Shown here: one piece after another, positions 27,164 to 48,953 of the stretch | How positions within the stretch are numbered: the stretch's first letter is position 1 | How the letters are laid out: every line of letters starts with the position of its first letter | NCBI GenBank assembly: GCA_016181885.1 | Contig: JACOYJ010000023.1 | Location: 1 to 49,318 of the forward strand | DNA length: 49,318 bases | Direction: 5' to 3' | Source of the DNA: Candidatus Pacearchaeota archaeon | GTDB lineage: Archaea > Nanobdellota > Nanobdellia > Pacearchaeales > GW2011-AR1 | Position numbers and translations under genes: made by a program | The notes under the pieces: model-generated | What the model saw: the letters and a program-made list of their open reading frames with translations, nothing else | What the model was told of the DNA's origin: nothing | Database searches by the model: none

Positions 27164-30100
27164 TTATGTTCTGCCAACATACCCCCTTCTTGGCTTGAAT
27201 ATTTCTCCCTGCGAGTTTAACTTGTTTATGGCCTCTTCTATTTCATCTTTACTCAGCTTGCCTTCCAGTTCCTGCTCTATCTCATTAATAGGAATCATTT
27301 TTCCAAGCCTGTTTTCCAAATCAATGATTGTATCTCTAACCAGGAATATCTTGCTCCTTTGGGAAGAAGTTATCCCGCTGGTTGCCTTATCTATGTCAAA
27401 AGTCTTGGATTCGTAGTCATAGCCAACCTGCATCAAATAGTACTTAACTAATTCAATTGCATTTTTAGCATCATCCAACGAAACCTTATTTGACAATCTC
27501 AGTTTAGCAGAAGCCTCAGCCATTCTTATAAGAGCCTGGAGCTGCCTGGCAGAAATAGGTATAGGCCTAAGCGCGCTATCAGAACTAATTGGTTTATTCC
27601 TAAGCTCAACATAAAATTTTTTTACCTCTTCAACTGCCTCATCGCTCAAAACTGGCTTGAATCTTTGCTTGGCATATGCAACATATTTCCTGAATAACTC
27701 CCTGTGAATGAGCATGTTCTCTCCTTTTTTCTGATGTTCGAATAAAACATGGGTGGCGATTTTTTCATCTTTTTCTCTGTTGGGAATATCCCTTAATGTG
27801 AAGATAACGTCAAATCTGTTTATTAATGTTGGAGGCAGATCAATTTGCTGCGCAATTGTCTGATAAGGATCAAACCTTCCAAATTTAGGATTTGCGGCAG
27901 CTAAGACTGATGTCTCCGCTCTCAAAGTTGCCTGCACGTTAGCTTTGCTGATTGTGATGGTATTGTGAAGAACTGCTGCTTGAGACACAAAAGCATGATT
28001 TGGCTCTATTGTAATATCATAAACCCATTTTTCGTTTTCATTTTGAATTATTTCTATTCCAGAAACTTTTTCCCACCCAATGTCATTTACCAAACCACTG
28101 ATAAATTCAATGTTCTCTTCATTTTTTAAGGATGGAAGCAGATTTCTTAAAAATTCTGTAGAAAAAGCGAATAAGTCTTTTCTCTTTGAATGATCATATA
28201 TCATGCCGTATTGTTTATATTCTCCAACTTCTTTGATATTTTCACTTTTTATTATGTCAATTATCTTTTCATTAAACCCCAAGGGAACTCTGTTTTTTAC
28301 ATGCCTTTTTATTGTTTTTTCTTTTAAATAATTGTTTACAATTGCATTTTTTCTTTTCGTAACAAATCCTACTTCCTTGCTAAATTTTTCCAGGTTGCTA
28401 TATTCGGTTACTCCAACCCTATAAAATTCCCTATTTTCGGTTATTGAGCTTCTTATTTTAAATCTAAGCAATAGGTCTTGTATTTGCTCTGCAAGCCTTT
28501 TACTTTTTGTTTTGTAACCAACTCTTATTGTCCTATTTTTGACTGATGCGTAGCCGTCTCCTTCAAATAAGGTTGAAAGCATTTTAGCTATGTGCTCTTT
28601 TTTTCCCATCATTATAAATCTAGGAATGTTCTTTTCTCCAGATAGCTTAAGAATTTCAGGCATCGTCTCTTCAAAGAACCTGGCTAGTTGAGAAGAAGTA
28701 TATCTATATGAAAACCTTGCTTTATGGGAGTCGATTTTAAGCTGCTTATAAGGATTAATATTAAATACTTTTTTCATCAAAAACTCAAAATCGTTCAATA
28801 CTTCTTCATTTCCATTAGTAAAGTTAATCCCTATTAATTTTCCCCTATTTTTCTCTCTAGAGCCTTCTGAAATAAGATACCCTACAATTTTAAATAACTC
28901 TCCACAATTTTTCTTGGGTATTGTTGGAATTTGTTTTATCCTTTTGTCTTCAATTTCTTTCATATTTATATTAAAGTACTGCTCTTCTCCCATAATTGGC
29001 AAAAACAAAGGAATTGGAATATCGTCGCCTATTTTTATTTCATCCGCTCTTTTTGTTATTATTTTTCCCCCCCATGCAATAAAAATGGGATGTTCCGGTG
29101 TAACTTTTATTTCCCTTCCATGAGAAAATTTTATTTTCACAAATTTGTCAAATGCTTTGTGTTTACTTATTCTATCCACTTTTGTCTTGTAAACTTGATT
29201 AAAGTCTGTTGTTAAAATCTCCATTTGACCATCTTTTAATATGAAACAATCTTTTCCTTCAACAATTTTATCTTTATTTTTTTCCATGAGCTCTTCAACA
29301 AGCTCTCCAATTTTTTTCTCTTCACCATTTGCAAGAGTTATTAAGGTATCATAGTGATAACATTGTTGCTCCATTGCCTCGTGCATCGCACTTCTGTCAT
29401 TAGGATCCATTTTCTCTAATTCATCTATGCACACAAGTCCCTTATTGGATAAGACCATTGCCCCTGCTTCAAGCGCCCATCCTCTTAAATATTCATCCCT
29501 CACAACAGTAGCTGTAAGCCCTGCTCCAGAAGCGCTTTTTCCAACTACGTATCTTCCTTTAGGAGAAATCTTTGCCATAAAATCTAAAGTAACTGACTTG
29601 GCGACTCCCGGATCTCCAATCAATAAAATATGAATGTCGCCTCTGCTCTTCTGTCCATCAGCATGAACTTTTTCAACTCCCCCAAAGAGCTGCAGTATAA
29701 GAGCTTTTTTTATTTCTTCATAACCCCAGATACTTGGAGTTATGCTCCTAGCCAGCTTGTCAAAGATTTTAGGATCAACTGCCAGCTCAAGAATCTGCTT
29801 CTCATCCTCATCAGAAATATCCAATTCCTCAAAAGTCTCTTCAAGTGGAATTATATTATTTGCTTCTATAGCAAGCTCAAATCTCGTTGATAACCCGCCA
29901 GACTGCAATGGGACAGGAACTTCTTTCAAAACCCCTATTACCTTAACTCTGCTGCCGGGAGTTGTTTTCTCCTCCATCTTAGGCTCGACCAAATCCTCCT
30001 TGACAAAAACATGAATTCTTTTGGGCTGCTCTCCTCCAGAAAGAGATTCAGGAGCTTCTTCAACAACCAGCCTTTGAGTATCAACCATTTCTTTGCTTAG

Positions 30101-30589
30101 TAGTTTAAATCCGCCTCTTCTGCCGCAAGAGCATCGTGAAGGCTCTCGAAATTTCTTTTCAATCTGCAAAACAGACATTATTGTTCCGCAGCTCGGGCAT
30201 TCAAACTTAGCATTTACAACTTGCGGCCTTACATCGCTGGCCTGCCTGATTATTCCTTCGACAACAATCATTTCGTCAAGATTTTTTGAGCGTATATTCC
30301 TAACTTTCATTTCCTGGCTTTTAGGAAGATCGTAAATTCTGACCCGGACATTTGAAACTAATCCCGATTCTTCAATTGCCAGCTCGATTATCGCTAAAGT
30401 TTCTTCCGGATTGGTGATAATTTCTTCAGATAGAATGTTAGAGAACTCTGTTAATTTTAGAAAATCGATGTAAATAATATTATTCCCTTTCCTTAACGAA
30501 TCCCCAAGCTCTTTCTTGTAAGAATCGAAAAAATTCTTAGCCTCAATTATAAGGTCCTCTTTCTTAGGCTTTATAGTTTTCTTGGCCAT
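27164..30589 (-). CDS. mcm: Replicative helicase MCM, extein about 674 aa, interrupted by one intein
   Basis: Zinc ribbon CPSCG...CSCG, Walker A IHILLIGDPGVAKS, Walker B LVCIDELEKMD, and the arginine-finger region SVLAAANP..GRFD. GGAGG lies 8 nt upstream of the ATG at 30589. Confidence 0.95.
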   Translation of the reverse strand: MAKKTIKPKKEDLIIEAKNFFDSYKKELGDSLRKGNNIIYIDFLKLTEFSNILSEEIITNPEETLAIIELAIEESGLVSNVRVRIYDLPKSQEMKVRNIRSKNLDEMIVVEGIIRQASDVRPQVVNAKFECPSCGTIMSVLQIEKKFREPSRCSCGRRGGFKLLSKEMVDTQRLVVEEAPESLSGGEQPKRIHVFVKEDLVEPKMEEKTTPGSRVKVIGVLKEVPVPLQSGGLSTRFELAIEANNIIPLEETFEELDISDEDEKQILELAVDPKIFDKLARSITPSIWGYEEIKKALILQLFGGVEKVHADGQKSRGDIHILLIGDPGVAKSVTLDFMAKISPKGRYVVGKSASGAGLTATVVRDEYLRGWALEAGAMVLSNKGLVCIDELEKMDPNDRSAMHEAMEQQCYHYDTLITLANGEEKKIGELVEELMEKNKDKIVEGKDCFILKDGQMEILTTDFNQVYKTKVDRISKHKAFDKFVKIKFSHGREIKVTPEHPIFIAWGGKIITKRADEIKIGDDIPIPLFLPIMGEEQYFNINMKEIEDKRIKQIPTIPKKNCGELFKIVGYLISEGSREKNRGKLIGINFTNGNEEVLNDFEFLMKKVFNINPYKQLKIDSHKARFSYRYTSSQLARFFEETMPEILKLSGEKNIPRFIMMGKKEHIAKMLSTLFEGDGYASVKNRTIRVGYKTKSKRLAEQIQDLLLRFKIRSSITENREFYRVGVTEYSNLEKFSKEVGFVTKRKNAIVNNYLKEKTIKRHVKNRVPLGFNEKIIDIIKSENIKEVGEYKQYGMIYDHSKRKDLFAFSTEFLRNLLPSLKNEENIEFISGLVNDIGWEKVSGIEIIQNENEKWVYDITIEPNHAFVSQAAVLHNTITISKANVQATLRAETSVLAAANPKFGRFDPYQTIAQQIDLPPTLINRFDVIFTLRDIPNREKDEKIATHVLFEHQKKGENMLIHRELFRKYVAYAKQRFKPVLSDEAVEEVKKFYVELRNKPISSDSALRPIPISARQLQALIRMAEASAKLRLSNKVSLDDAKNAIELVKYYLMQVGYDYESKTFDIDKATSGITSSQRSKIFLVRDTIIDLENRLGKMIPINEIEQELEGKLSKDEIEEAINKLNSQGEIFKPRRGYVGRT
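27962..29362 (-). mobile_element. MCM intein (467 aa) with a LAGLIDADG homing-endonuclease domain
   Basis: The host motif EAMEQQ|TITISKA is split. The insert starts CYHYDTLITL and ends AAVLHN, followed by T. LAGLIDADG blocks are IVGYLISEGS and LSTLFEGDGYAS. Confidence 0.9.
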
Positions 30590-30601
30590 TATAAAAACCT
30601 C

Positions 30602-30846
30602 CAGCGGGTTTTTAGATTCCAGCATCCAGCAGAGCCTTCTCGATGCCTCTGATTGGCTCTGACAAAAAACCGGAATTTTATGAATCCAGCAACTGAAGAC
30701 AACCTACGGTTTTCTCCGATTCGGCCGTTGGACGATGGTATTTGATGGACGAATCTTGTCCACATCCAACAACCTCTCACACACTTTCCCTTAATTTGCC
30801 TCAGATAGATTCTATTAATTCCCATAGAACTCAAAAATAGCCCTGC
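30602..30846. ncRNA. Candidate structured RNA or leader in a G+C-enriched non-coding block. Identity and strand unresolved.
   Basis: About 48% G+C over 30601-30780 by hand count, against about 30% in the flanks. The ends are complementary (GCGGGTTTTT ... AAAAA-TAG-CCC). Internal stems: AGAGCC/GGCTCT (30632-30660), TGGAC/GTCCA (30746-30762), CCG-ATT-CGG (30716-30724). The only ORF here is W/R/C-rich and looks non-protein-like. Confidence 0.25.
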
Positions 30847-39448: not shown

Positions 39449-39630
39449 TCATTTTTTCTTATTCTTTTATTTTTTTAGAACTAGTTGTTACTTCTTTGCT
39501 TTTTTGCAGTTTTGCTGAAGTTTATTTTTGAAAAAATGTGGGGCGTGGCTAGGAAATAATAAAACCGAAAGGTATATAAATAAGTTATATCTTATAAATA
39601 AGATTAAACTTATTGGAGGTAAAACAAGAA

Positions 39631-39900
39631 ATGGAAGAAAAAATTGAAATGGCAACTGTGAGTTCAAGAGGACAAATTTGTATCCCAAATGACATAAGGG
39701 AAGAAATGGGATTAAAAGAAGGAAGCAAGGTTTTGTTTGCTTTGACTGGAGATTCTTTGATTATGAAGAAAGTTAGCATGCAGACCTTTGCAGAAATCAC
39801 TAAACCTTTGAAGGAAGCCATGAAAAAATCTGGCTTGAAAGAGTCTGATGTTGTTGGTATAATTCACAGATTTAGAGCTCAAAAAAGAGCTGGAAAATGA
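39631..39900 (+). CDS. AbrB/SpoVT-domain antitoxin
   Basis: SSRGQICIPNDIREEMGLKEGSKVLF. GGAGG lies 11 nt upstream of the ATG at 39631. The stop overlaps the PIN gene start (ATGA). Confidence 0.7.
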   Translation: MEEKIEMATVSSRGQICIPNDIREEMGLKEGSKVLFALTGDSLIMKKVSMQTFAEITKPLKEAMKKSGLKESDVVGIIHRFRAQKRAGK

Positions 39901-40316
39901 GAATCACAACAGATACGAATGTCCTTATTTCTTCTACGTTTTGGGAAGGTGCGTCTGATAAAATTATGCAAAAAGTTGAAAATAAAGAAGTTGAGCTTGT
40001 TCTATCTAAGGAGTTAATAAGTGAATTCACAAAAGTATTAGGTTATGATGAAATCAAAGATAAAATTAAAGACAAAAATCTTGAAGTTAGGAGAAGTGTA
40101 GAAAAGATAGTTTCCATTTCAACAATAGTGGAGTCGAGCCAGAAATTTGAAATTGTTAAAGATGACCCGGATGATAATATGGTTATTAATTGCGCTGCTG
40201 AAGGAGATGTTGATTATGTAGTTACTCAAGATAACCATTTGCTTAAAATAAAAGAGTTTAAAGGAATAAAAATTCTAAATCCAGAAGAATTTTTGGAAAT
40301 TTTTGAAAAAGTGTAA
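39897..40316 (+). CDS. PIN-domain toxin
   Basis: N-terminal TTDTNVLISS, DPDDNMVINCA, and YVVTQDNHLL, the typical PIN acidic positions. Confidence 0.7.
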   Translation: MRITTDTNVLISSTFWEGASDKIMQKVENKEVELVLSKELISEFTKVLGYDEIKDKIKDKNLEVRRSVEKIVSISTIVESSQKFEIVKDDPDDNMVINCAAEGDVDYVVTQDNHLLKIKEFKGIKILNPEEFLEIFEKV

Positions 40317-40317
40317 A

Positions 40318-40926
40318 TTATTTTTTAACAGCTTTTTTATAGTTGTTGTTTACCTTATCCCAGTTAATCACATTAAAAAAGTTTTTCACATACTCAGCTC
40401 TGTTGTTTTTGTAAAGGAGATAATAACTATGCTCCCAGACATCTATTCCAAGAATCGGGGTTTTCTCCTGACTTAAAGGAGATTCTTGGTTTTTTGTTTG
40501 CATTATTTCAAGATTTCCTTTTGAATCAACAACAAGCCAGGCCCAACCGCTTCCAAATAAAGTTAATGCTGAATTTGAAAATTGTTCTTTAAAATATTCA
40601 AAACTCGTAAACTTCTTTGTTATTGCCTTTTCAATTTCTCCAGAAATATTGATATCTTTTTTTAGAATTTCCCAGAAAAAGTTGTGATTTACAAAACCAC
40701 CGCCATGATTGATTACTGCTTGTCTTATTTTTTCAGGAACTTTGTTTATCTCTTTGAGCAAGTCTTCTGCTTTTTTCTTCTGCAAGTCAGGAAATTCTTT
40801 TAATGCGTCATTGAGCTTGTCAGTATATGTTTGGTGATGCTTGTCATGATGGATTTTCATCGTTAGTTCATCTATGAAAGGCTCTAAGGAATTGTATGCG
40901 TATTGGAGGGGCTTTAGTTCAAACAT
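40318..40926 (-). CDS. sod: Fe/Mn superoxide dismutase
   Basis: HHDKHHQTY, GGGFVNHNFFW, and the metal-ligand motif DVWEHSYYL. Confidence 0.95.
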   Translation of the reverse strand: MFELKPLQYAYNSLEPFIDELTMKIHHDKHHQTYTDKLNDALKEFPDLQKKKAEDLLKEINKVPEKIRQAVINHGGGFVNHNFFWEILKKDINISGEIEKAITKKFTSFEYFKEQFSNSALTLFGSGWAWLVVDSKGNLEIMQTKNQESPLSQEKTPILGIDVWEHSYYLLYKNNRAEYVKNFFNVINWDKVNNNYKKAVKK

Positions 40927-41009
40927 AAAATTAACTATTGTTTAGTATTTATATAGATTACGATTAATGATTTAGTGAGAAAAACTATCGAAATGTTAAT
41001 AAATGTTGA

Positions 41010-41426
41010 ATGTCCTTGATAATCATGGTTGGTTTAATGGATAGAGTTGGGTTGGTTAATGGCATGGGACATGGCGATGTTGTGCAAGAAAAACCAATAT
41101 CTGCCGCTTATCTTCAAATAACCCCAAGAAAAGGTTTGTTGAAAGATCGTTTTGCTGATGGAAAATTGGAAAAATTCTTTGATGATTTTAAAGGTTTGTT
41201 CGAATTTGACGAATTTGAGAAAGATATGAGAGTTTTTATTGAAAATGAAGAGTCTCTAATCGAACAAGGCCATTTTGGGAAATACGCTTTGTTTTACCAT
41301 GGAAAGTTATGGGGAATTTTACCTGTTTTTAAGCCTTTGATTGATTCATTTCATAAGAAAGAGGGGAATCACTCGTGTTATTGCGACAGAATCGGCGAAG
41401 GATTTGATCCAAATAAAGAATTTTAA
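41010..41426 (+). CDS. Hypothetical protein
   Basis: ORF only. Confidence 0.3.
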   Translation: MSLIIMVGLMDRVGLVNGMGHGDVVQEKPISAAYLQITPRKGLLKDRFADGKLEKFFDDFKGLFEFDEFEKDMRVFIENEESLIEQGHFGKYALFYHGKLWGILPVFKPLIDSFHKKEGNHSCYCDRIGEGFDPNKEF

Positions 41427-41644
41427 TAATAATGCCTTGAACTTGCTGGGGTTAGCTAAAAATTATTAGTTTTTTATATTTATGGGTTTTATTTAAGCTA
41501 TTTTATCTGTTCCAACCAGCCCACCATGCGAAAATGGGACTAATATAGAATTAAATTTTTTATATAGTTAGTTTAAATATCCGCCAAATTGTTTTTCAAT
41601 CATTAATATTTTCGCTGTGAAATAGATAATCAATTTATATTTTT

Positions 41645-42160
41645 TTAAGCCCTTAGCCCTCTTGATTTTATGGCCGCAGAAGTCAATCCTCTCAAAGCTC
41701 TTTTTTTATTTTTTCTATCGCATATCCAATTTATTGTCGGGTCGTTTTTTATCTCCGGCTTTGAAGGATCGACGCAGATTACCTCGAAGAAATAATGAAT
41801 TCCGTCTTTGCCAACTTGGTAGGAATTTAGGACTTCAAGATTTGGATATTTTTTTGCAACACGCGACTCTGCAATCCACTTGTAAGACATTGAAAGATTT
41901 TTTCTTGTATGCATTCTCTTGCTTCTGCGGGCTTTTTTCGGCCTTGTTCTTTTGTGGCCGCCCCTCATTAACCTTGCGCGTATAACTACAAATCCAACTT
42001 TTGCTTTGTAGCCCAATGCCCTTGCTTTATCCAGCCTTAATGGCTTTTCAACTCTAGTGAATGTTTCTGATTTTCTCCATTTAATCATTCTTTCTCTTAG
42101 AGTTTTTGTGTCTGGCTTTTTCCACGCTTGTTTTATATAGTGATAAGCTCCGTGTGTCAT
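41645..42160 (-). CDS. rpl15e: Ribosomal protein L15e
   Basis: GAYHYIKQAWKKP...RLDKARALGYKAKVGFVVIRARLMRGG...RP is a hallmark L15e sequence. Confidence 0.95.
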   Translation of the reverse strand: MTHGAYHYIKQAWKKPDTKTLRERMIKWRKSETFTRVEKPLRLDKARALGYKAKVGFVVIRARLMRGGHKRTRPKKARRSKRMHTRKNLSMSYKWIAESRVAKKYPNLEVLNSYQVGKDGIHYFFEVICVDPSKPEIKNDPTINWICDRKNKKRALRGLTSAAIKSRGLRA

Positions 42161-42291
42161 AGACTATTTATAGAAAAATGGTTTTTAAATATAACTAATA
42201 TGTGAGCTGTAAAGTAAACGTCATCTAATTACCAATGAACTGACCGAAATCTATTAAAGTATTAAGGTATTAGTTAAAGAGAGGTTTTAAA

Positions 42292-42511
42292 ATGACTGAT
42301 GTCCATACTAAAAAAAATAGCAGTTTTTGTGGATGGATGTTTTTGGCACAGATGTCCAAAGCACTATAAAGAACCAGAACAAAATAAGAAATTTTGGAAA
42401 AACAAAATAAATAAAAACACTGCAAGAGATAAATTAGTAACAAAAAAGTTAAAAAAAGAGGGATGGAGGGTTATCCGCGTCTGGGAACACTCTCTCCGAA
42501 GAATAAAATGA
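42292..42511 (+). pseudogene. vsr: Very-short-patch repair endonuclease (Vsr) remnant: C-terminal core only, with a frameshift at an A8 run
   Basis: The frame from 42299 encodes IAVFVDGCFWHRCPKH...FWKNKINKNTARDKLVTKKLKKEGWRVIRVWEHSL, the Vsr core. About half of a normal ~150-aa Vsr is missing. The ATG at 42292 in another frame encodes MTDVHTKK, and it would join the core frame if one A were lost from 42310-42317. Confidence 0.7.
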
Positions 42512-43347
42512 AAAAAGAGGTAAACGTTATAGATTTATTCTGCGGTGCTGGCGGTCTGAGCACCGGATTTAAACAGGCAGGGTTTAATGTTATTCTTGGG
42601 ATAGATAATGACGGCAGTGCGCTGAAAACCTTTAAACTAAATCATCCTGAGTCTGAAATTTTGGAGAAAGATATCTCTAAAAATGACCCAAGAAATTTTT
42701 TAATAAACCAGTTTTTACGAATTGTTTCTTTGGTTGAACCAGAAATTTTTGTTATAGAAAATGTTCATGGATTAAGATCTATGAAAGATGAAAATGGCAG
42801 ATTAGTCTTGGATCTAATAGGAAAAAGAATCAAAAAATTAAGATATTCGTTAAAAACATATATTTTAAACGCAGAAGAATATGGGGTTTCTCAAAAGAGA
42901 AAAAGGATTTTTTTAGTCGGAGGAAGAAAATCGGTTGACTTAAAAATAAAAAAAACAAATAAAACCCTCCTGAAAAATATTTTATTAGATAAAAATGATG
43001 TACCTGGTAAATATTTTTATTCACAGAAACTTATTAAAGGTTTTAAAAGACGAGAAAAAATAAATAAAAAATTAGGGAGGGGGTTTGGATGGAGATTTCT
43101 AAGTCCAGATGATACTTCGTATACAATATCAGCAAGGTATTACAAAGACGGAGCTGAAGCACTTGTTAAATATTCTGAAAATCAAATAAGAAGACTTACT
43201 CCTGAAGAATGTGCATTGATTCAGTCATTCCCTAAGGATTATAGATTCGAAGGGGGAATAATTAAGATGTACAAACAAATAGGTAATGCTGTGCCCCCTA
43301 AGCTGGGTTTTGCAGTTGCGAAAGCTATAAAAAACGCTGTATTTTAG
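42508..43347 (+). CDS. dcm: Dcm-family DNA (cytosine-5) methyltransferase homolog lacking catalytic motif IV (PCQ)
   Basis: Motif I DLFCGAGG, motif VI ENV, motif VIII QKRKRIFLVG, motif IX RRLTPEECALIQSFP and motif X GNAVPP are all present. Between KDISKN and DPRNFLINQF the roughly 28-aa segment that normally carries GGPPCQxFS is absent, in frame. The start overlaps the vsr stop (ATGA). Confidence 0.85.
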   Translation: MKKEVNVIDLFCGAGGLSTGFKQAGFNVILGIDNDGSALKTFKLNHPESEILEKDISKNDPRNFLINQFLRIVSLVEPEIFVIENVHGLRSMKDENGRLVLDLIGKRIKKLRYSLKTYILNAEEYGVSQKRKRIFLVGGRKSVDLKIKKTNKTLLKNILLDKNDVPGKYFYSQKLIKGFKRREKINKKLGRGFGWRFLSPDDTSYTISARYYKDGAEALVKYSENQIRRLTPEECALIQSFPKDYRFEGGIIKMYKQIGNAVPPKLGFAVAKAIKNAVF

Positions 43348-43355
43348 CTTTTTTA

Positions 43356-44672
43356 ATGAATGAAACCTACGAAGTAATCCCAAGTGCAAAAAGATTAATA
43401 AAATCTTTAAGAGATATAGGATATGATTTTTCAACAGCTGTTGCTGATCTTATTGACAATTCAATTGAAGCAGGAGCTTCTAAGGTAGACATTGATGTTG
43501 CATTTTATGGTAATGATTCGTATGTCCGTATTTCAGATAATGGAAACGGAATGAAAAGTGAAAATTTAAAGGAAGCAATGCGTTATGGTTCTGAAAGAGA
43601 CTATCTTGAAGAGGATCTTGGCCGCTTTGGATTAGGATTAAAAACTGCTTCAATGAGCCAATGTCAGTATTTTTCTGTTGCAAGCAGAAGTAAAGAAAAT
43701 AAACAAATTGCTGTTTTTAGTTGGGATTTGTCCCATATTGAACGGACAAATAAATGGGAAATATTGCAACCGAAAGAAAAAGATATACCTGAATTATTGA
43801 AGACTCCAATCTCAGAGCATTCTGGTACTGTTGTTCTGTGGGAGAAATTAGATAGGATTATAGGTTTTAAAAACTCGGAAGGAGAAGCGGCCCGCAACAA
43901 AGTTATTTCTATGTGCAGAGAACTTGAAAATTATTTGAGCATGGTTTTTCATAAATTTTTATCAAATGAGGTTCTCGGAAAATCTTTAGAAATATATCTC
44001 AATCGCAATAAAATTCAACCATGGGATCCTTTTGGACGTCATGAATCCAAAACAAATATACTATCTCCTATAAAAATTAAAATAATCCATAACGGTGCTG
44101 AAAATAAAATATTCCTACAGCCTTATATTCTACCAACAAAAGAAGAATTCTCATCACAAGATTCTTTTCAGAAATTATCCGGCATATCAGGATGGAATCC
44201 CCAGCAGGGATTTTATATTTATCGTGCAAACAGAATGATACAAAGCGGGGGATGGTGTGGTTTAAGAGTAATAGATGAACATACCAAACTCGCCAGAATA
44301 GAATTAAATTTTTCTCCGGCACTCGATGATTTATTTAAAATAAATGTTGCCAAAATGAAAGTTCAATTACCTGTTCAGGCCAGAGAGGAGATTGAACGGG
44401 TGGTTAAACCAATAGTTTCACTGGCCCGTGAACGTTACGATCATGAAAAGAAAAATTTGTTTAAACCATCTGCTCCCAAAGTAACTGAGATTCAACAAAC
44501 TTCTCCAATTAATAAAAACATTTTAATTAAAAATAGCTCTCAAGATATTAAATTTGATCTATTCACATTGAATGAAGTTGAACAAAAGGTAAAAGAATTT
44601 GCAACGAAATACGAAAGTAAAACAATTTCAGATGTTTTTTCACGCTTAAGAAGGAGATTATTTGGGAGATAA
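43356..44672 (+). CDS. MORC-like GHKL (Bergerat-fold) ATPase
   Basis: N box DLIDNSIEAGA, G1 box DNGNGM, G2 box GRFGLGLKTAS. 438 aa. Starts 8 nt after the methyltransferase stop. Confidence 0.8.
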   Translation: MNETYEVIPSAKRLIKSLRDIGYDFSTAVADLIDNSIEAGASKVDIDVAFYGNDSYVRISDNGNGMKSENLKEAMRYGSERDYLEEDLGRFGLGLKTASMSQCQYFSVASRSKENKQIAVFSWDLSHIERTNKWEILQPKEKDIPELLKTPISEHSGTVVLWEKLDRIIGFKNSEGEAARNKVISMCRELENYLSMVFHKFLSNEVLGKSLEIYLNRNKIQPWDPFGRHESKTNILSPIKIKIIHNGAENKIFLQPYILPTKEEFSSQDSFQKLSGISGWNPQQGFYIYRANRMIQSGGWCGLRVIDEHTKLARIELNFSPALDDLFKINVAKMKVQLPVQAREEIERVVKPIVSLARERYDHEKKNLFKPSAPKVTEIQQTSPINKNILIKNSSQDIKFDLFTLNEVEQKVKEFATKYESKTISDVFSRLRRRLFGR

Positions 44673-44673
44673 A

Positions 44674-47307
44674 ATGAATGAAACTGAAACACTTGGATTG
44701 GTAAGACACTTTATTGACATAGGAATTTCCTTGGATGAAGCAGTGAATAATCCTGCTATACCTCTTAATTTTAAGGACAAGATTTTGCAAACAATCAAGG
44801 AAGAAGAAAATATTATACTAGAACCAGCAAACATAATAAAAGACAGCGAAAACTATGAAGATTGGCTAATCAAAGAAGACAGGTCTGATTGGTATTACTG
44901 GAATACTTTACGAAGATATCTACTTGATAAAAAGGGATGGTCTGGACCATCAGTCCAGTCATTAGATAAAGAAACAGACAGAATCTTGGGAATGCTCGAT
45001 TCTCCGAAAAAAGAGATCTTTGATAAAAAAGGTCTTGTACTGGGATTTGTACAAAGCGGGAAAACCTCTAATTACACTGCATTGATAGCAAAAGCTGCTG
45101 ATTCTAGTTATCGGCTCATTATCGTGCTTTCAGGAACAGATAATGGTCTCCGTTTACAGACTCATAGAAGATTAAAAAATGAGTTAGTTGGTAGTAATGA
45201 AGGAAAGGGCGTACCTCTCCCCCCGATAGGTAAACAATGGCATGAGTTTACACGTGTTGATTTAAATGGAGATTTCCAAGCAGGATTTGTTAATACTGCG
45301 GCATTGCAGGGAAATCAACCAGTGTTGATGGTAATTAAGAAAAACGGAGCAGTACTCAGACGACTTATTAGCTGGCTAAATTCAGCATCAGAGGAAATTA
45401 AAAGAACTCTCCCTCTTTTAGTAATTGATGATGAAGCAGATTTGGCAAGCATAGATACAAAAGGATCATATCAGGCAGAAGATGAACTTCTGCCAGAAGA
45501 TTATGAAGCTCCTTCTGTAATAAACGGGTTAATACGTGATTTATTAAATAAGTTCAATCGCAAAGCGTATATTGCTTATACAGCAACACCATTCGCTAAT
45601 ATTTTAATCCCTCATGATAATTATAATCCAAGATTTAGCGATGATTTATATCCCAAAAATTTTATAGTTAATTTACCAAAACCAAATGAATATTTCGGAG
45701 CAGAAGAATTATTTGGACCTATGGACTATGTTTCAGAAGACGAAAACGAAGGGCTTGATGTTATAAGAACCGTTAATGATTCAAATGATTTTTTATTAGA
45801 ACAATACTCTATAATGCATCCTGATATGGAAAAGGCTATTCTTAGTTTCGTGCTGGCTGGTGCGTCAAGAAGTTACAGAAGTAAAAAAGATTTTCCAGCT
45901 ACAATGCTTATTCATATAACTTTAAGAACAATAAAACAAGAGCAACTTAAGGAGATTGTCGATAGGAAATTCACTGAATTTAAAGATGAGTGGAGATACA
46001 ATCGCAAAGAAAAGATTTATGATCAATTACGCAGAATCTGGGGAGAAGATTTTTTACCTGTTATTCAAGCAAAATATCCTAATAAATTGATTAACTTTAA
46101 AGATATTGAAACTAATATTAGTACCTTCTTCGAATCGGTTCAAATAAGATCTCTGAATAGCGTTTCTGGGGACTCTCAGGCACTTGACTACGAAAAAGAA
46201 CCAAATCTTAAGTTAATTGCAATTGGCGGAAATAAACTCTCCAGAGGATTAACTCTTGAAGGACTCTTGATAAGTTTCTTTACAAGAAGAACAAAGCAAT
46301 ATGATACTTTAATGCAGATGGGAAGATGGTTTGGTTTTCGCGGAGGATATGAAGATTTAACAAGAATATATACTACCCCTGAGCTTTCAGGATGGTTTAG
46401 TAGTCTATCACAGATTGAAGCGGAATTACGGGAAGATATTAAAATATATGAAGAACTAAAACTTACTCCTTTTGAAGTTGGTTTGCGAATTAAAGCTCAC
46501 CCAGTTATGCAGGTTACATCGCCTTCAAAACGAAGATTTGCCAATGAAGTATTAATTTCAAAAACTTATAGAGGATTATTATCACAAACTATAAAGTTTC
46601 CTTTGAATAACCTTGAGGTTCTTTCAAAGAGAGAAGAAGAGAATATTGCTATAGTTAAAAAATTTTTATCTGAATTGGGAGAACTTACAGGATTTCATAA
46701 TGAAAGACCATTTTGGAAAAATGTGCCCGCACAAAAAGTGATAGATTTTCTAAATAAATTTCAAACAGATGAAAGCAATTTATCTTTTCGTCCCCAACTA
46801 ATTATTGAATATATAAAAAAATTAAATGAGGAAAACGAATTGATAAAATGGACCGTAGCTATATGCGGAAATAAATCTTATGATTCAGATCTTGGAGATG
46901 TTGATTTAGGGTTAAAAATTAAAATTAATCAGATCAATATTAGCCAAGAAGAAAAAAATAGAAATAGTCTTAAAGGCATTGTAAGTCAGGGAGATGAATT
47001 GATAGGGTTATCATCCGAAAAAGAAGATGAAGTTAATAACCTTATTGCTAGCACGAAAATTCAGAAGAATAATGCTGCCAGATTAATTAGAGACCCTTCC
47101 GAAGGTTTAATTCTATTATACCCTATAAGTAAGAATTCAAAACCTCACTCAAAAAATAGAATTCCTTTATATGAAGATCCAAAAGATCCTCTTGCAAAAA
47201 ATCTAATTGGAATAGCTATCTCTTTTCCTGAGAAATCAAAAATTCCTCAATCTGATGAGTTATATGTCATTGGAACAGTTCCTTGGAGGCCTGAAGATGA
47301 GTCTTAA
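44674..47307 (+). CDS. Z1-domain SF2-like P-loop NTPase
   Basis: Walker A GFVQSGKTSNY, Walker B LLVIDDEADLAS, motif III AYTATPFAN. Z1 signature GGNKLSRGLTLEGLLISFFTRR...DTLMQMGRWFGFRGGYEDLTRIY. The ATG lies 1 nt after the GHKL stop. Confidence 0.8.
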   Translation: MNETETLGLVRHFIDIGISLDEAVNNPAIPLNFKDKILQTIKEEENIILEPANIIKDSENYEDWLIKEDRSDWYYWNTLRRYLLDKKGWSGPSVQSLDKETDRILGMLDSPKKEIFDKKGLVLGFVQSGKTSNYTALIAKAADSSYRLIIVLSGTDNGLRLQTHRRLKNELVGSNEGKGVPLPPIGKQWHEFTRVDLNGDFQAGFVNTAALQGNQPVLMVIKKNGAVLRRLISWLNSASEEIKRTLPLLVIDDEADLASIDTKGSYQAEDELLPEDYEAPSVINGLIRDLLNKFNRKAYIAYTATPFANILIPHDNYNPRFSDDLYPKNFIVNLPKPNEYFGAEELFGPMDYVSEDENEGLDVIRTVNDSNDFLLEQYSIMHPDMEKAILSFVLAGASRSYRSKKDFPATMLIHITLRTIKQEQLKEIVDRKFTEFKDEWRYNRKEKIYDQLRRIWGEDFLPVIQAKYPNKLINFKDIETNISTFFESVQIRSLNSVSGDSQALDYEKEPNLKLIAIGGNKLSRGLTLEGLLISFFTRRTKQYDTLMQMGRWFGFRGGYEDLTRIYTTPELSGWFSSLSQIEAELREDIKIYEELKLTPFEVGLRIKAHPVMQVTSPSKRRFANEVLISKTYRGLLSQTIKFPLNNLEVLSKREEENIAIVKKFLSELGELTGFHNERPFWKNVPAQKVIDFLNKFQTDESNLSFRPQLIIEYIKKLNEENELIKWTVAICGNKSYDSDLGDVDLGLKIKINQINISQEEKNRNSLKGIVSQGDELIGLSSEKEDEVNNLIASTKIQKNNAARLIRDPSEGLILLYPISKNSKPHSKNRIPLYEDPKDPLAKNLIGIAISFPEKSKIPQSDELYVIGTVPWRPEDES

Positions 47308-48289
47308 CCAAAATATATGGACAAAATTAGAAGATGGCTTACCTTCCGGAGAAAGAATCGCTGCAAGATTAGCTATACCTAACAAATCAAGGAAATTGTA
47401 TGCTGGTCTTGATTCATATAAACAACGTCATTTACTTATCCCCCTTGAAGAAAACGAAGAAGAATATTATGATTCAGAAAGCAGAGGTATATCTGTTAAA
47501 ACAAAAGAATTAATCATTAAAGGGTCTGAACAAAAAAAGTATATTGATATTATTTGTCAAGATGTTTCTGGGCACGTTATTTTTGATGCAATTGCTGAAG
47601 ATATCGCAGAAAAATTAGATAAAGGAATTTCAAGAGAGATAATAATAAATGTTATAGGTAAATGGCGTAATTTCTGGGATAAATCCGTACAAGACTTATT
47701 ATCTTATAATGTGATGACCGGACTTTTTGCAGAGTTATGGTTTCTATATTATTGGCTGTTCCCTAGGATGGATAAACTTTCTGCGCTTGCTGCATGGAGA
47801 GGTCCATTTTCAAGCAGGCACGATTTTGAATGGATTGGAAAATCTGTTGAGGTAAAGGCTACTACAAATGTACATAGCAGAACACATAAAATAAATGGAA
47901 TAGAACAACTGTCCCCTCCAGAAAACGGAGAGTTATTTTTATTTAGTTTGCGTATTCGTGAAGAACACGGAGCAAACAACGATCTTCCAAAACTTATTTC
48001 TCTCTGCAGAGAGAAATTAAAAGATAACTCTAAAGCCATAACAAAATTTGAAAATATACTAGGAATTATAGGTTATTCTCCAATACATGACAATGAATAC
48101 TCAAAAATTAAATTTAGAGTTGTTGATGAGAGATTATACAGGGTTACTGATGAGTTTCCGCGTTTGATAGAAGATTCATTTGTGAATGGAATACCTCCAG
48201 GAATCGGAACAATAGAGTATAATATCAATCTAGATGGGTATGACAATTTATGTCTTGCTAAATCCCATGAAGAAAAAATTGACTTTTAG
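47297..48289 (+). CDS. PD-(D/E)XK motif protein (predicted nuclease)
   Basis: SRHDFEWIGKSVEVKATT gives a D...ExK arrangement. The ATG at 47297 overlaps the Z1 gene end by 11 nt. Confidence 0.6.
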   Translation: MSLNQNIWTKLEDGLPSGERIAARLAIPNKSRKLYAGLDSYKQRHLLIPLEENEEEYYDSESRGISVKTKELIIKGSEQKKYIDIICQDVSGHVIFDAIAEDIAEKLDKGISREIIINVIGKWRNFWDKSVQDLLSYNVMTGLFAELWFLYYWLFPRMDKLSALAAWRGPFSSRHDFEWIGKSVEVKATTNVHSRTHKINGIEQLSPPENGELFLFSLRIREEHGANNDLPKLISLCREKLKDNSKAITKFENILGIIGYSPIHDNEYSKIKFRVVDERLYRVTDEFPRLIEDSFVNGIPPGIGTIEYNINLDGYDNLCLAKSHEEKIDF

Positions 48290-48417
48290 TTTTGTACTGA
48301 TAATTTAATTAGGTCGAGCCATCTACTCTCCCCTAAATCTAAATTAACACCTGCTTTTTCAGAAGGAACTTCTCCCGTAGTTGAATGGTTTTCTATTAAC
48401 TGCAAAAGGTATAGAAT

Positions 48418-48666
48418 TCAAACCGAAATATTAATAGGAAGTTTAAGATTAATTTTATCTAAAATCTGCTTTAAGATTATGGCTCTTTTTTTAAAATCCA
48501 ATATGCCAACATTCTTTATTTCGTTGGTGGCAACATCTTTTGTAATAAAAATTCCTTGCTCAATTTCTTCTGTTGTTCCTTCATCTGCTGGCAATCCAAA
48601 GGATATCTCTAAAAAATCCCCTTCCTCGTCATAGTAAATGTCATAGGTATTATATTCTTCCTTCAT
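48418..48666 (-). CDS. DUF2283-family small protein (putative antitoxin)
   Basis: IYYDEEGDFLEISFG...GIFITKD..TNEIKNVGILDFKK matches the DUF2283 pattern. It overlaps its upstream partner by 4 nt. Confidence 0.6.
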   Translation of the reverse strand: MKEEYNTYDIYYDEEGDFLEISFGLPADEGTTEEIEQGIFITKDVATNEIKNVGILDFKKRAIILKQILDKINLKLPINISV

Positions 48667-48953
48667 TTTATGTCCTTACTTAAATAGGCAGTTATAATAA
48701 AACCCTCTCCATTTAAATATTTAACTACAACTAAAACAAAGCGGTTGGGATATTTAAGGTATTTGTAGTTTTTATAATAATAACCCTTTTCAAAGTCTTG
48801 GTTAATTATCTTACTCGGGATTTGAAGCGTTTGTTTTATTTCTTCTAAATATTTCTCCAGATATGGATGCCTTTTCGTAATATGTTTCCATTGTTTTTTA
48901 GTTAATCTTATTTTCCTCTCTGTCTTATCACTTATTTCAAAGATATAACTCAT
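48663..48953 (-). CDS. Small basic protein, putative toxin partner of DUF2283
   Basis: 96 aa and translationally coupled to the DUF2283 gene. The family could not be assigned by eye. Confidence 0.35.
   Translation of the reverse strand: MSYIFEISDKTERKIRLTKKQWKHITKRHPYLEKYLEEIKQTLQIPSKIINQDFEKGYYYKNYKYLKYPNRFVLVVVKYLNGEGFIITAYLSKDIK

Follow-up and report, generated by a model that had tools for sequence, protein, structure and literature searches.

Is an operon that pairs three apparently intact effector genes with a broken DNA methyltransferase and a broken mismatch-repair partner a design in its own right, or an ordinary system that has recently been damaged? The question is raised by a five-gene locus in Candidatus Pacearchaeota archaeon contig JACOYJ010000023.1, analysed over its 49,318 nucleotides (the window). 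The initial annotation, made from the DNA alone, offered among other readings a defence complex that uses the dead methyltransferase as its specificity subunit and a system caught mid-decay. The locus was examined using protein family profiles, strain-level sequence comparison, a survey of gene neighbourhoods and structural models.

Organization of the locus

Window positions 42292-48289 carry a co-directional vsr–dcm–GHKL–Z1–DUF4420 operon of five genes on the + strand, as delimited in the ORF list:

42292/42299-42511, + strand: vsr remnant (ORF and TIGR00632)
42508-43347, + strand: dcm, joined to vsr by an ATGA overlap (DNA_methylase)
43356-44672, + strand: GHKL ATPase gene, after an 8-nt gap from dcm (HATPase_c_3)
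44674-47307, + strand: Z1 gene, after a 1-nt gap from the GHKL gene (Z1 profile)
47297-48289, + strand: DUF4420 gene, with an 11-nt overlap with Z1 (DUF4420 profile)

The gene junctions are as first annotated, and the five family assignments are backed by Pfam or NCBIfam profiles (Vsr by TIGR00632). The cassette is flanked upstream by rpl15e and downstream by a PBECR2/DUF2283 toxin–antitoxin pair. Neither an AIPR ORF or remnant nor an MzaA (sigma-70/ankyrin) gene was found at the locus. The host is a Woesearchaeota-like DPANN archaeon, in agreement with the first impression of a DPANN-like genome, and the cassette is chromosomal. A scan for bacterial promoters and terminators gave the same counts as shuffled sequence, the bacterial models being unsuited to an archaeon.

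Deletions in vsr and dcm

The original vsr start codon lies at 42292 (MTDVHTKK...). A 143-nt deletion, with its junction between 42315 and 42316, takes out codons 9-56 and throws the gene out of frame. Among the codons lost are those for GKPDF, which holds the catalytic Asp ('PDF', D51 in E. coli). What remains is a 70-aa ORF (42299-42511), the C-terminal half of Vsr; the N-terminal half is gone. It matches TIGR00632 over profile positions 57-118 of 119 only (E = 2.5e-23), and its match to Pfam Vsr (E = 7e-5, 23 bits) falls under the Pfam cutoff of 27. An intact Vsr of 120 aa is encoded on L108, a contig of the same strain that is 100% identical on either side of the vsr junction, and full-length Vsr was found in all the relatives compared. 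The window vsr is a pseudogene, and its Vsr is dead.

The dcm lesion is an in-frame deletion of 105 nt (junction 42682|42683). The 35 codons lost, ITKKDVTSKIGNRKVDIIIGGPPCQGFSLAGRRNP, comprise motif IV with the catalytic Cys (GGPPCQGFS), and the missing segment aligns to motif IV of M.HaeIII. The match of the protein to DNA_methylase (E = 2.5e-54) is split in two and skips profile positions ~55-82. Motifs I, VI, VIII, IX and X are kept, and among columns at least 90% conserved the only deviations are at G-P-C-Q-S inside the deletion. The intact allele (P0122/L108) encodes 314 aa and is otherwise identical to the window dcm. Motif IV occurs in all relatives compared; the deletion is absent from each of the 120 best of 1469 Dcm homologs, and among the Dcm matches listed all are at least 310 aa long save one 206-aa fragment from a 906-nt contig. 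With motif IV and its catalytic Cys absent, the window Dcm is a predicted dead methyltransferase. Both partners are thus defective, as was first proposed.

Counts of C-containing 4- and 6-mer palindromes were aimed at site avoidance as a reason for a dispensable methylase. They revealed no striking depletion of GGCC, CCGG, GCGC or CCWGG in the 49-kb window, and the Dcm TRD was unalignable to that of M.HaeIII.

The effector genes

The GHKL protein (HATPase_c_3, E = 1.6e-30) is a MORC/MutL-like ATPase related to MzaB, with intact N (DLIDNS), G1 (DNGNGM) and G2 (GRFGLGLK) boxes. The Z1 protein (Pfam Z1, E = 5.5e-71), a relative of MzaC, is an SF2 NTPase composed of a DEAD-type N-core, a Z1 C-core and a C-terminal domain. 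Walker A (GFVQSGKT), Walker B (DDEAD), TAT (motif III) and DTLMQMGRWFGFR are intact; so is the QMGRWFGFR block, within a region (DTLMQMGRWFG) that is invariant in the Z1 alignment. No match to the Z1 protein was found among PDB chains with phmmer. A low-confidence model of it matches SF2 translocases, among them HsdR (E ~1e-4, TM-scores ~0.25), which would support a generic SF2 assignment only. DUF4420 (profile E = 5.9e-62), a relative of MzaD, is a putative PD-(D/E)XK nuclease: E146, D176 and E185-x-K187 (330-aa numbering) are invariant in the alignment, and in an AF2 model (pLDDT 87.7) these residues are carried on an αβββαβ core. A Foldseek search of the PDB with this model gave no match below E 0.07, and a sequence search of the PDB gave none. 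No recognisable sequence-specific DNA-binding domain was found by Pfam in any of the three proteins.

Hidden lesions were sought by comparison with ~75-93 homologs at columns at least 95% conserved. None of 53 such columns deviates in GHKL, none of 13 in DUF4420 and 2 of 87 in Z1, where other sequences vary as much; the effector motifs are intact, as first described. The two Z1 deviations were rejected as candidate compensatory inactivating changes: the strain with the intact allele also carries S145 (G145S), and at position 756 a non-Arg residue, L, also occurs in the closest relative, whose Dcm is intact.

Age of the deletions

Logan contigs from sequencing runs, with locus identities to the window of 99.95-100%, served as comparators. 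Apart from a single base, they depart from the window at this locus only where it lacks 143 nt of vsr and 105 nt of dcm, in both cases as a clean deletion. L108 (SRR12113424) covers window positions 40130-44273 with just two gaps and a single mismatch; L110 (SRR12113430) aligns to 42314-46487 with 100% identity save the dcm gap; L111 (SRR12113422) has an intact vsr; and L112 (SRR12113383) is 100% identical over 47115-48483. Intact vsr and dcm are thus carried by sister contigs from three other runs, and the deletion allele was seen in a single assembly, the window's own contig. The exact window DNA had no match in the GTDB genome or JGI metagenome collections. The deletion junctions are flanked by 2-3 nt of A-rich microhomology, and other window genes with comparators show no length differences.

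The effectors are equally close. GHKL is 100% identical to that of L110, a strain with intact dcm; Z1 is identical to L110 over residues 1-604 and to L112 over the last 63 residues; and DUF4420 is 100% identical to L112. Over the ~7.7 kb of DNA compared, which covers ~88% of the effector coding sequence and lies outside the Z1 segment 46488-47114 (627 nt), one base differs. Given a 100%-identical comparator, the relative divergence of the five genes was uninformative as a sign of relaxed selection and was set aside.

Because all relatives have a full-length Vsr and retain motif IV in Dcm, the intact forms are taken as ancestral, and both deletions are, as read from these alignments, very recent strain-level events. 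With near-zero divergence since they arose, neither the intactness of the effectors nor the preserved dcm frame is informative on selection. On the same evidence, what keeps the effectors intact, and dcm in frame, is best read as the shortness of the time elapsed and not as purifying selection. The lesions are population variants days to years old, not an evolved architecture. What had looked like a conserved design of dead methylase and live effectors is explained away by this comparison, and "mid-decay" proved the best-fitting of the initial options.

Distribution of the cassette

The initial annotation had suggested a survey of Z1 neighbourhoods together with a check of Dcm motif IV, which, as seen above, is kept in relatives. 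Z1 homologs number more than 7800 at E at most 1e-20, across Bacteria and Archaea. Dozens of unrelated genomes have the Vsr–Dcm–GHKL–Z1–DUF4420 order, as do close relatives, and ~100 surveyed loci show the same gene association. Since it recurs in unrelated genomes, the arrangement is not due to chance; the cassette is widespread and horizontally mobile. It had been considered unusual in a DPANN genome, but other Woesearchaeota-type MAGs also have it in intact form, and Methanoregula has a broken copy. The lack of AIPR, also thought unusual, turned out to be the rule in this subfamily: at a Z1 identity of 40% or more, 0 of 11 loci have AIPR, versus 45 of 74 more distant loci. Throughout the subfamily dcm lies directly upstream of the effectors with tight spacing, and in many distant loci it is on the opposite strand or is parted from the effectors by AIPR. 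The family thus splits into an AIPR-less, Dcm-adjacent subfamily and an AIPR-containing, Mza-like one.

Relationship to known systems

In 2008 Iyer, Abhiman and Aravind predicted a third type of prokaryotic MORC/paraMORC restriction-modification operon. In it an SFII helicase with a C-terminal 'DThhQXuRhFG' domain is accompanied by Dcm, Vsr and a protein of RE fold with E-D-ExK; the description is computational only (PMC2292703). The link to this prediction, made in the initial annotation, is borne out: all five parts (GHKL+S5-type ATPase, SFII/Z1, RE-fold protein, Dcm and Vsr) are present in the window operon. A linked functional Dcm, and often Vsr, is expected in this type; the window copies are inactivated, whereas the L108 allele is intact.

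The effectors are also homologous to components of Mza (MzaABCDE; PADLOC PDLC02204-6, NCBIfam NF041931-5): GHKL to MzaB (5e-76), Z1 to MzaC (6e-150) and DUF4420 to MzaD (2e-28). However, their scores fall far short of the equivalog cut-offs (255.9 vs 850 for MzaB, 500.7 vs 1500 for MzaC and 99.7 vs 420 for MzaD), all of which are passed by a Mza locus used as positive control (L068). Neither Dcm nor Vsr is encoded within 7 kb of that true Mza, whereas the window cassette is built around both; Mza in turn has MzaA (sigma-70/ankyrin) and MzaE (AIPR), and the window locus has neither. By these comparisons the window cassette is classed as a sister of Mza, not a member. Mza goes unmentioned in the PADLOC 2021 paper.

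Two families of characterised enzymes share parts of the cassette. CglI and NgoAVII are C5-methyltransferase-linked, ATP-dependent restriction systems whose DEAD-Z1 motor shares with the window Z1 protein its Pfam Z1 domain (PF10593) and an unusual motif VI region (PMC4267653, PMC5861437), and the CglI DEAD-Z1 H-subunit translocates on dsDNA (PMC5861437). The hallmarks of this subunit, the Pfam Z1 domain and an N-core with Walker A and B, are found in the window protein. The R subunit of these enzymes combines a B3 DNA-binding domain with a PLD nuclease; the window has no such gene, DUF4420 being the candidate nuclease, and it has an additional GHKL ATPase. HsdR of Type I systems (EcoR124I) likewise couples an SF2 dsDNA translocase to a PD-(D/E)XK nuclease with methylation-based self-protection, but in the window the nuclease is a separate polypeptide and a C5 enzyme of the monomeric type takes the place of the N6 HsdM/S complex. 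BsuMI (ydiR/ydiS/ydjA), considered as a characterised equivalent, was dropped, the BsuMI paper offering no domain evidence. The early statement that such systems lack biochemical characterisation stands for the exact Vsr–Dcm–GHKL–Z1–DUF4420 cassette, on which no biochemistry was found in the searchable literature. It does not stand for the parts: biochemical data exist for the Z1 motor of the CglI/NgoAVII restriction enzymes (PMC5861437, PMC4267653), and an mza-like system gave phage protection of at least 1000-fold (bioRxiv 10.1101/2024.01.28.577318).

Model and alternative explanations

The best explanation, to which we assign a probability of roughly 0.7, is that an ordinary representative of the cassette family is seen here in a strain variant with two recent deletions, which mark either the beginning of its decay or a knock-out favoured by selection. 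The window system is of a known kind, not a distinct methylation-independent design. In the intact system, Dcm would mark host DNA with 5-methylcytosine and Vsr would repair the T:G mismatches arising from m5C deamination. By homology of the parts, GHKL, Z1 and DUF4420 would form an ATP-dependent restriction complex acting against unmarked DNA, in which the Z1 SF2 motor would translocate on dsDNA like the CglI H-subunit, the MORC/MutL-like ATPase may act as a dimerising clamp or loop-former, and DUF4420 would supply the PD-(D/E)XK cleavage site. In the window variant, the two microhomology-flanked deletions (143 and 105 nt) have cut the catalytic core out of both vsr and dcm.

In classical restriction–modification, methylase loss with restriction intact should be lethal. 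The methylase-minus, effector-plus genotype was abundant enough to assemble, and some unobserved factor must make it tolerable. One candidate, possible though rather unlikely, refines the best explanation: the Dcm protein itself serves the effectors as an obligatory subunit for target recognition or licensing, and the destruction of its fold switched the whole system off without harm. Type III Res needs Mod, and Type I HsdR needs HsdM/S. If the effectors were Dcm-dependent, the methylase-minus genotype would be viable, and such a genotype exists, with effectors identical to those of a methylase-plus strain. The lack of a recognisable DNA-binding domain in the effectors and the tight placement of dcm just upstream of them across the subfamily point the same way. 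Yet an interaction between Dcm and the effectors is hypothetical, the Mza B-C-D module occurs without Dcm within 7 kb, and distant loci often have dcm on the opposite strand or behind AIPR. A broader version, in which the strain, found alongside the intact one in the same sample series, is viable through Dcm-dependent targeting or licensing or through a Mza-like methylation-independent mode, and the paired deletions were positively selected, shedding m5C while keeping or neutralising defence, is unlikely.

It is also improbable that both deletions were introduced into one MAG contig during assembly or consensus calling, the organism's own operon being intact. The confinement of the deletion allele to the window's own contig, and the presence of the intact allele in assemblies of the same strain from three further runs, are what an artefact would leave. 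But microhomology of only 2-3 nt provides no repeated k-mer to short-circuit a de Bruijn graph, the gaps strike two adjacent and functionally linked genes and remove the catalytic motifs of each, and no further length difference turns up in the flanks and other genes compared (~7.7 kb). The initial proposal that the dead Dcm is kept as the specificity subunit of a methylation-independent or modification-sensing complex is very improbable. The in-frame deletion with every other conserved motif kept, the existence of methylase-free relatives of the effector triad (Mza) and the phage protection by an mza-like system speak for it. Retention of frame and motifs carries no weight, however, when there has been essentially no divergence since the deletion, and the allele is on one contig only, intact in sister contigs and absent from the best Dcm homologs. 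Moreover, the 35 lost residues lie in the core of the catalytic domain by homology to M.HaeIII, making misfolding likely, the frameshift in vsr breaks translational coupling into dcm, and the partners of Mza, the sigma-factor MzaA and AIPR, are both absent here.

Implications

The locus is a cautionary case: intact effectors beside a dead partner need time calibration. As a natural genotype that separates methylation from restriction, it is also a small lead on the cassette. The allele pair, intact in L108/L110 and deleted in the window, could be cloned to ask whether the effectors are toxic without Dcm. If viability of the methylase-minus strain did reflect Dcm-dependent targeting or a Mza-like mode, it would be the first functional clue to DNA recognition by this large cassette family.

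The five-gene cassette

Five closely spaced ORFs, all on the + strand, make up the cassette at 42292-48289 of the window:

42299-42511, +, Vsr-like ORF (70 aa), with an out-of-frame ATG upstream at 42292
42508-43347, +, Dcm-like ORF (279 aa), ATGA overlap with the Vsr-like ORF
43356-44672, +, GHKL ATPase (438 aa), 8-nt gap after dcm
44674-47307, +, Z1 protein (877 aa), 1-nt gap after the GHKL gene
47297-48289, +, DUF4420 protein (330 aa), 11-nt overlap with the Z1 gene

The profile searches proposed in the initial annotation support all five family assignments, and the ORF coordinates agree with the co-directional genes and junctions that it described; the annotation thus described the sequence correctly. 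The effectors match HATPase_c_3 (GHKL protein, E 1.6e-30), the Z1 family (E 5.5e-71) and the DUF4420 family (E 5.9e-62). The Dcm-like ORF matches DNA_methylase (E 2.5e-54) in two stretches, with the motif-IV region absent between them, and the Vsr-like ORF aligns to TIGR00632 only from position 57 to 118 of the profile's 119. In phmmer searches of the PDB, the GHKL protein matches the N-terminal domains of MutL, PMS2 and MORC3, and no chain matches the Z1 or DUF4420 protein. A low-confidence model of the Z1 protein (pLDDT 66.9) matches SF2 helicases/translocases only, HsdR among them. The AF2 model of the DUF4420 protein (pLDDT 87.7) has an N-terminal five-stranded β domain and an αβββαβ core bearing the E/D/ExK residues; a Foldseek search with this model gave no significant hit in the PDB.

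Integrity of the effectors, Dcm and Vsr

Each protein was aligned with 75-93 homologs drawn from ~100 related loci, and deviations were scored at columns at least 95% conserved among the other sequences (at least 90% for Dcm). None of the conserved columns deviates in the GHKL protein (0/53) or the DUF4420 protein (0/13); the Z1 protein has two deviations among 87 columns, a level matched by 27 of the other 93 sequences. The signatures are in place: DLIDNS, DNGNGM and GRFGLGLK in the GHKL protein, GFVQSGKT, DDEAD, TAT and DTLMQMGRWFGFR in the Z1 protein, and E146, D176 and E185-x-K187 in the DUF4420 protein. For Dcm, whose motif IV the initial annotation proposed to score, 5 of the 27 conserved columns deviate, all of them the G-P-C-Q-S of that motif and within one gap; the catalytic Cys is missing. 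Vsr lacks the half bearing the catalytic Asp (the 'PDF' segment; D51 in E. coli Vsr). Both parts of the initial claim, intact effector motifs beside a defective Dcm and Vsr, thus hold on alignment.

At residue 31 of the GHKL protein (window 43356-44672) the N-box general base is Asp, where MutL/MORC have the Glu of 'E-x-x-x-N'. At least 95% of 75 homologs share this Asp, which is therefore characteristic of the family, not a lesion.

Deleted and intact alleles

A protein search with Dcm recovered a 314-aa protein (P0122) that is the same as the window Dcm plus 35 additional residues. It is encoded on a 4392-nt contig of a sister assembly (L108; Logan assembly SRR12113424), syntenic with the window in the order SOD, orf133, rpl15e, Vsr (120 aa), Dcm (314 aa), GHKL. 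DNA alignment of L108 with window 40130-44273 shows one mismatch and exactly two gaps, both in the window. The vsr gap of 143 nt (L108 2187-2329) deletes codons 9-56 and causes a frameshift; in dcm the gap is 105 nt (L108 2697-2801) and takes out ITKKDVTSKIGNRKVDIIIGGPPCQGFSLAGRRNP. Microhomology at both junctions is merely 2-3 nt and A-rich. The sole mismatch is a G/T SNP (Ser/Tyr) at 40595 in the SOD gene; its Tyr allele is found also in SRR12113430, where dcm is intact.

The SRR12113430 contig (L110) is 100% identical to window 42314-46487 except for the dcm gap, spanning the remainder of dcm, the whole GHKL gene and Z1 residues 1-604. In SRR12113422 (L111) vsr is intact too, and the SRR12113383 contig (L112) is 100% identical to window 47115-48483, spanning the Z1 end and the whole DUF4420 gene. 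The comparison covers the locus except 46488-47114. The deletion allele was found on the window's own contig only, and the best 120 of 1469 Dcm homologs are all at least 310 aa apart from a 206-aa fragment encoded on a contig of 906 nt. The intact vsr and dcm forms are ancestral because every homolog has them.

The two deletions are confined to two adjacent, functionally coupled genes, each of which loses its catalytic core. We take the double deletion to be genuine: a strain variant of very recent origin, in which decay has just begun or a knock-out was selected. Assembly artefact is an unlikely account: it would have had to strike these two coupled genes at their catalytic cores, and the window genes with comparators are otherwise free of length variants, so the contig is not generally full of gaps. 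The deleted allele differs from the intact one by almost no substitutions. No time for decay has elapsed, and the open dcm frame, kept motifs and unblemished effectors are therefore uninformative on selection. The suggestion that the dead methylase had evolved into a specificity subunit consequently loses its footing, whereas that of a system 'caught mid-decay' stands, the near-zero divergence dating the loss as extremely recent. The two Z1 deviations are unconnected with the methylase loss, because S145 is also present in the intact-allele strain and position 756 is Leu in the closest relative, which retains a full Dcm at its locus.

Distribution and decay across the family

At E<=1e-20, over 7800 homologs of the Z1 protein are found across phyla, many of them with identity above 50%. 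The loci of its nearest relatives keep the order of the five genes, with Vsr (120-139 aa) and Dcm (330-440 aa) both full-length, and include those of other Woesearchaeota-type archaeal MAGs with the full cassette. The host is DPANN-like as annotated, with a DNA ligase 82% identical to its Woesearchaeota MAG counterpart, an intein-bearing archaeal MCM and rpL15e, but the cassette is not unusual there.

Nor is the lack of AIPR unusual. The proposed neighborhood survey of Z1 homologs showed the same order recurring, with AIPR split by Z1 identity: loci with Z1 at least 40% identical carry GHKL in 11/11, Dcm in 10/11 and AIPR in 0/11, whereas an AIPR gene directly follows DUF4420 in 45 of 74 more distant loci (confirmed by Pfam on five examples). 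AIPR absence is thus the norm for this subfamily.

Decay of the cassette is not rare in the family. Vsr is absent from several surveyed loci. A Methanoregula sp. MAG (L048, 3890-9550) is a second archaeal locus that pairs a broken methylase with complete effectors: its Dcm is in two pieces, an N-terminal ORF of 227 aa that retains PPCQ and a C-terminal one of 103 aa, adjoining full-length GHKL, Z1 and DUF4420. Later stages are seen in a Dokdonella sp. MAG (L027, 3740-10969), where the cassette is wholly fragmented (a 154-aa Dcm piece, four Z1 pieces), and at L030 (10644-12173), where Vsr is split and partly duplicated.

Other architectures occur. At L109 (7610-10695), Vsr and a Dcm 64% identical to that of the window precede one 583-aa HATPase_c_3 protein in a neighborhood without Z1 or DUF4420, which shows the Vsr-Dcm module to be shuffled among different GHKL effector sets. 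A third architecture (L011 7845-15411 and L014 1846-9329; Sulfopaludibacter, Cyanobium, Prochlorococcus, others) has the order Z1, DUF4420, a ~640-aa protein without Pfam match carrying an N-box-like 'LRExLQNSWDA' motif, a ~300-aa protein and a DUF6339 protein, with Dcm and Vsr close by and AIPR absent.

Genomic surroundings

The cassette is bracketed by two toxin-antitoxin-like pairs, MazE/AbrB-type antitoxin plus PIN-domain protein (39613-40316, +) and PBECR2 (barnase/EndoU/RelE-like) nuclease plus DUF2283 (48418-48953, -); cassette and pairs make up a small defence/addiction cluster adjoining rpl15e and SOD. The archaeal MCM helicase gene (27164-30625, -) is split by an intein with Intein_splicing and LAGLIDADG_3 homing-endonuclease domains. 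Palindrome statistics within the window gave no sign of site avoidance that might account for survival without the methylase. GATC is ~two-fold under-represented in the whole window (77 observed, 147 expected under a maximal-order Markov model), which hints at GATC-directed restriction pressure unconnected with the cassette.

Known systems and proposed mechanism

The initial citation of Iyer, Abhiman and Aravind 2008 was apt: this neighborhood is their third MORC operon type, in which an SFII helicase whose C-terminal domain carries 'DThhQXuRhFG' lies next to an E-D-ExK RE-fold protein, often together with cytosine methylases and Vsr (PMC2292703). The effectors are also related to MzaB, MzaC and MzaD of the MzaABCDE anti-phage system (NCBIfam, PADLOC) but score far below the NCBIfam equivalog cut-offs. 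A genuine Mza locus from Enterobacter (L068) passes all five models, includes sigma-70/ankyrin MzaA and AIPR MzaE, and lacks Dcm and Vsr within 7 kb. By these scores and this composition the cassette is a sister of Mza, not a member; L068 shows that no neighboring methylase is needed for the effector triad to exist, though its partners there are different. An mza-like system, SDIC2, protects at least 1000-fold against phage (bioRxiv 10.1101/2024.01.28.577318), and the DEAD-Z1 protein of CglI/NgoAVII translocates along dsDNA, driven by ATP, and activates a nuclease that is a separate subunit (PMC5861437).

Family membership and intact motifs are shown; how the complex assembles and chooses its targets is inferred by analogy with CglI, the Type I restriction enzymes and the 2008 proposal. 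On that basis the intact cassette would be a methylation-protected, ATP-dependent restriction complex. Dcm would mark self DNA and Vsr mend damage caused by m5C deamination; the Z1 protein would translocate, the GHKL protein clamp or loop DNA, and the DUF4420 protein cut. An M-minus, effector-plus cell may survive through an unseen suppressor or silencing, or through another methylase, encoded elsewhere in the genome, that protects it; the refinement we favor, tentatively and at odds well below even, is that the effectors depend on the Dcm protein. The locus adds a member to a cassette family known from computation and unstudied in biochemistry, and it carries a strain-level double knock-out. 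Its main value is the natural pair of deleted and intact alleles, which provides a handle for experiments.
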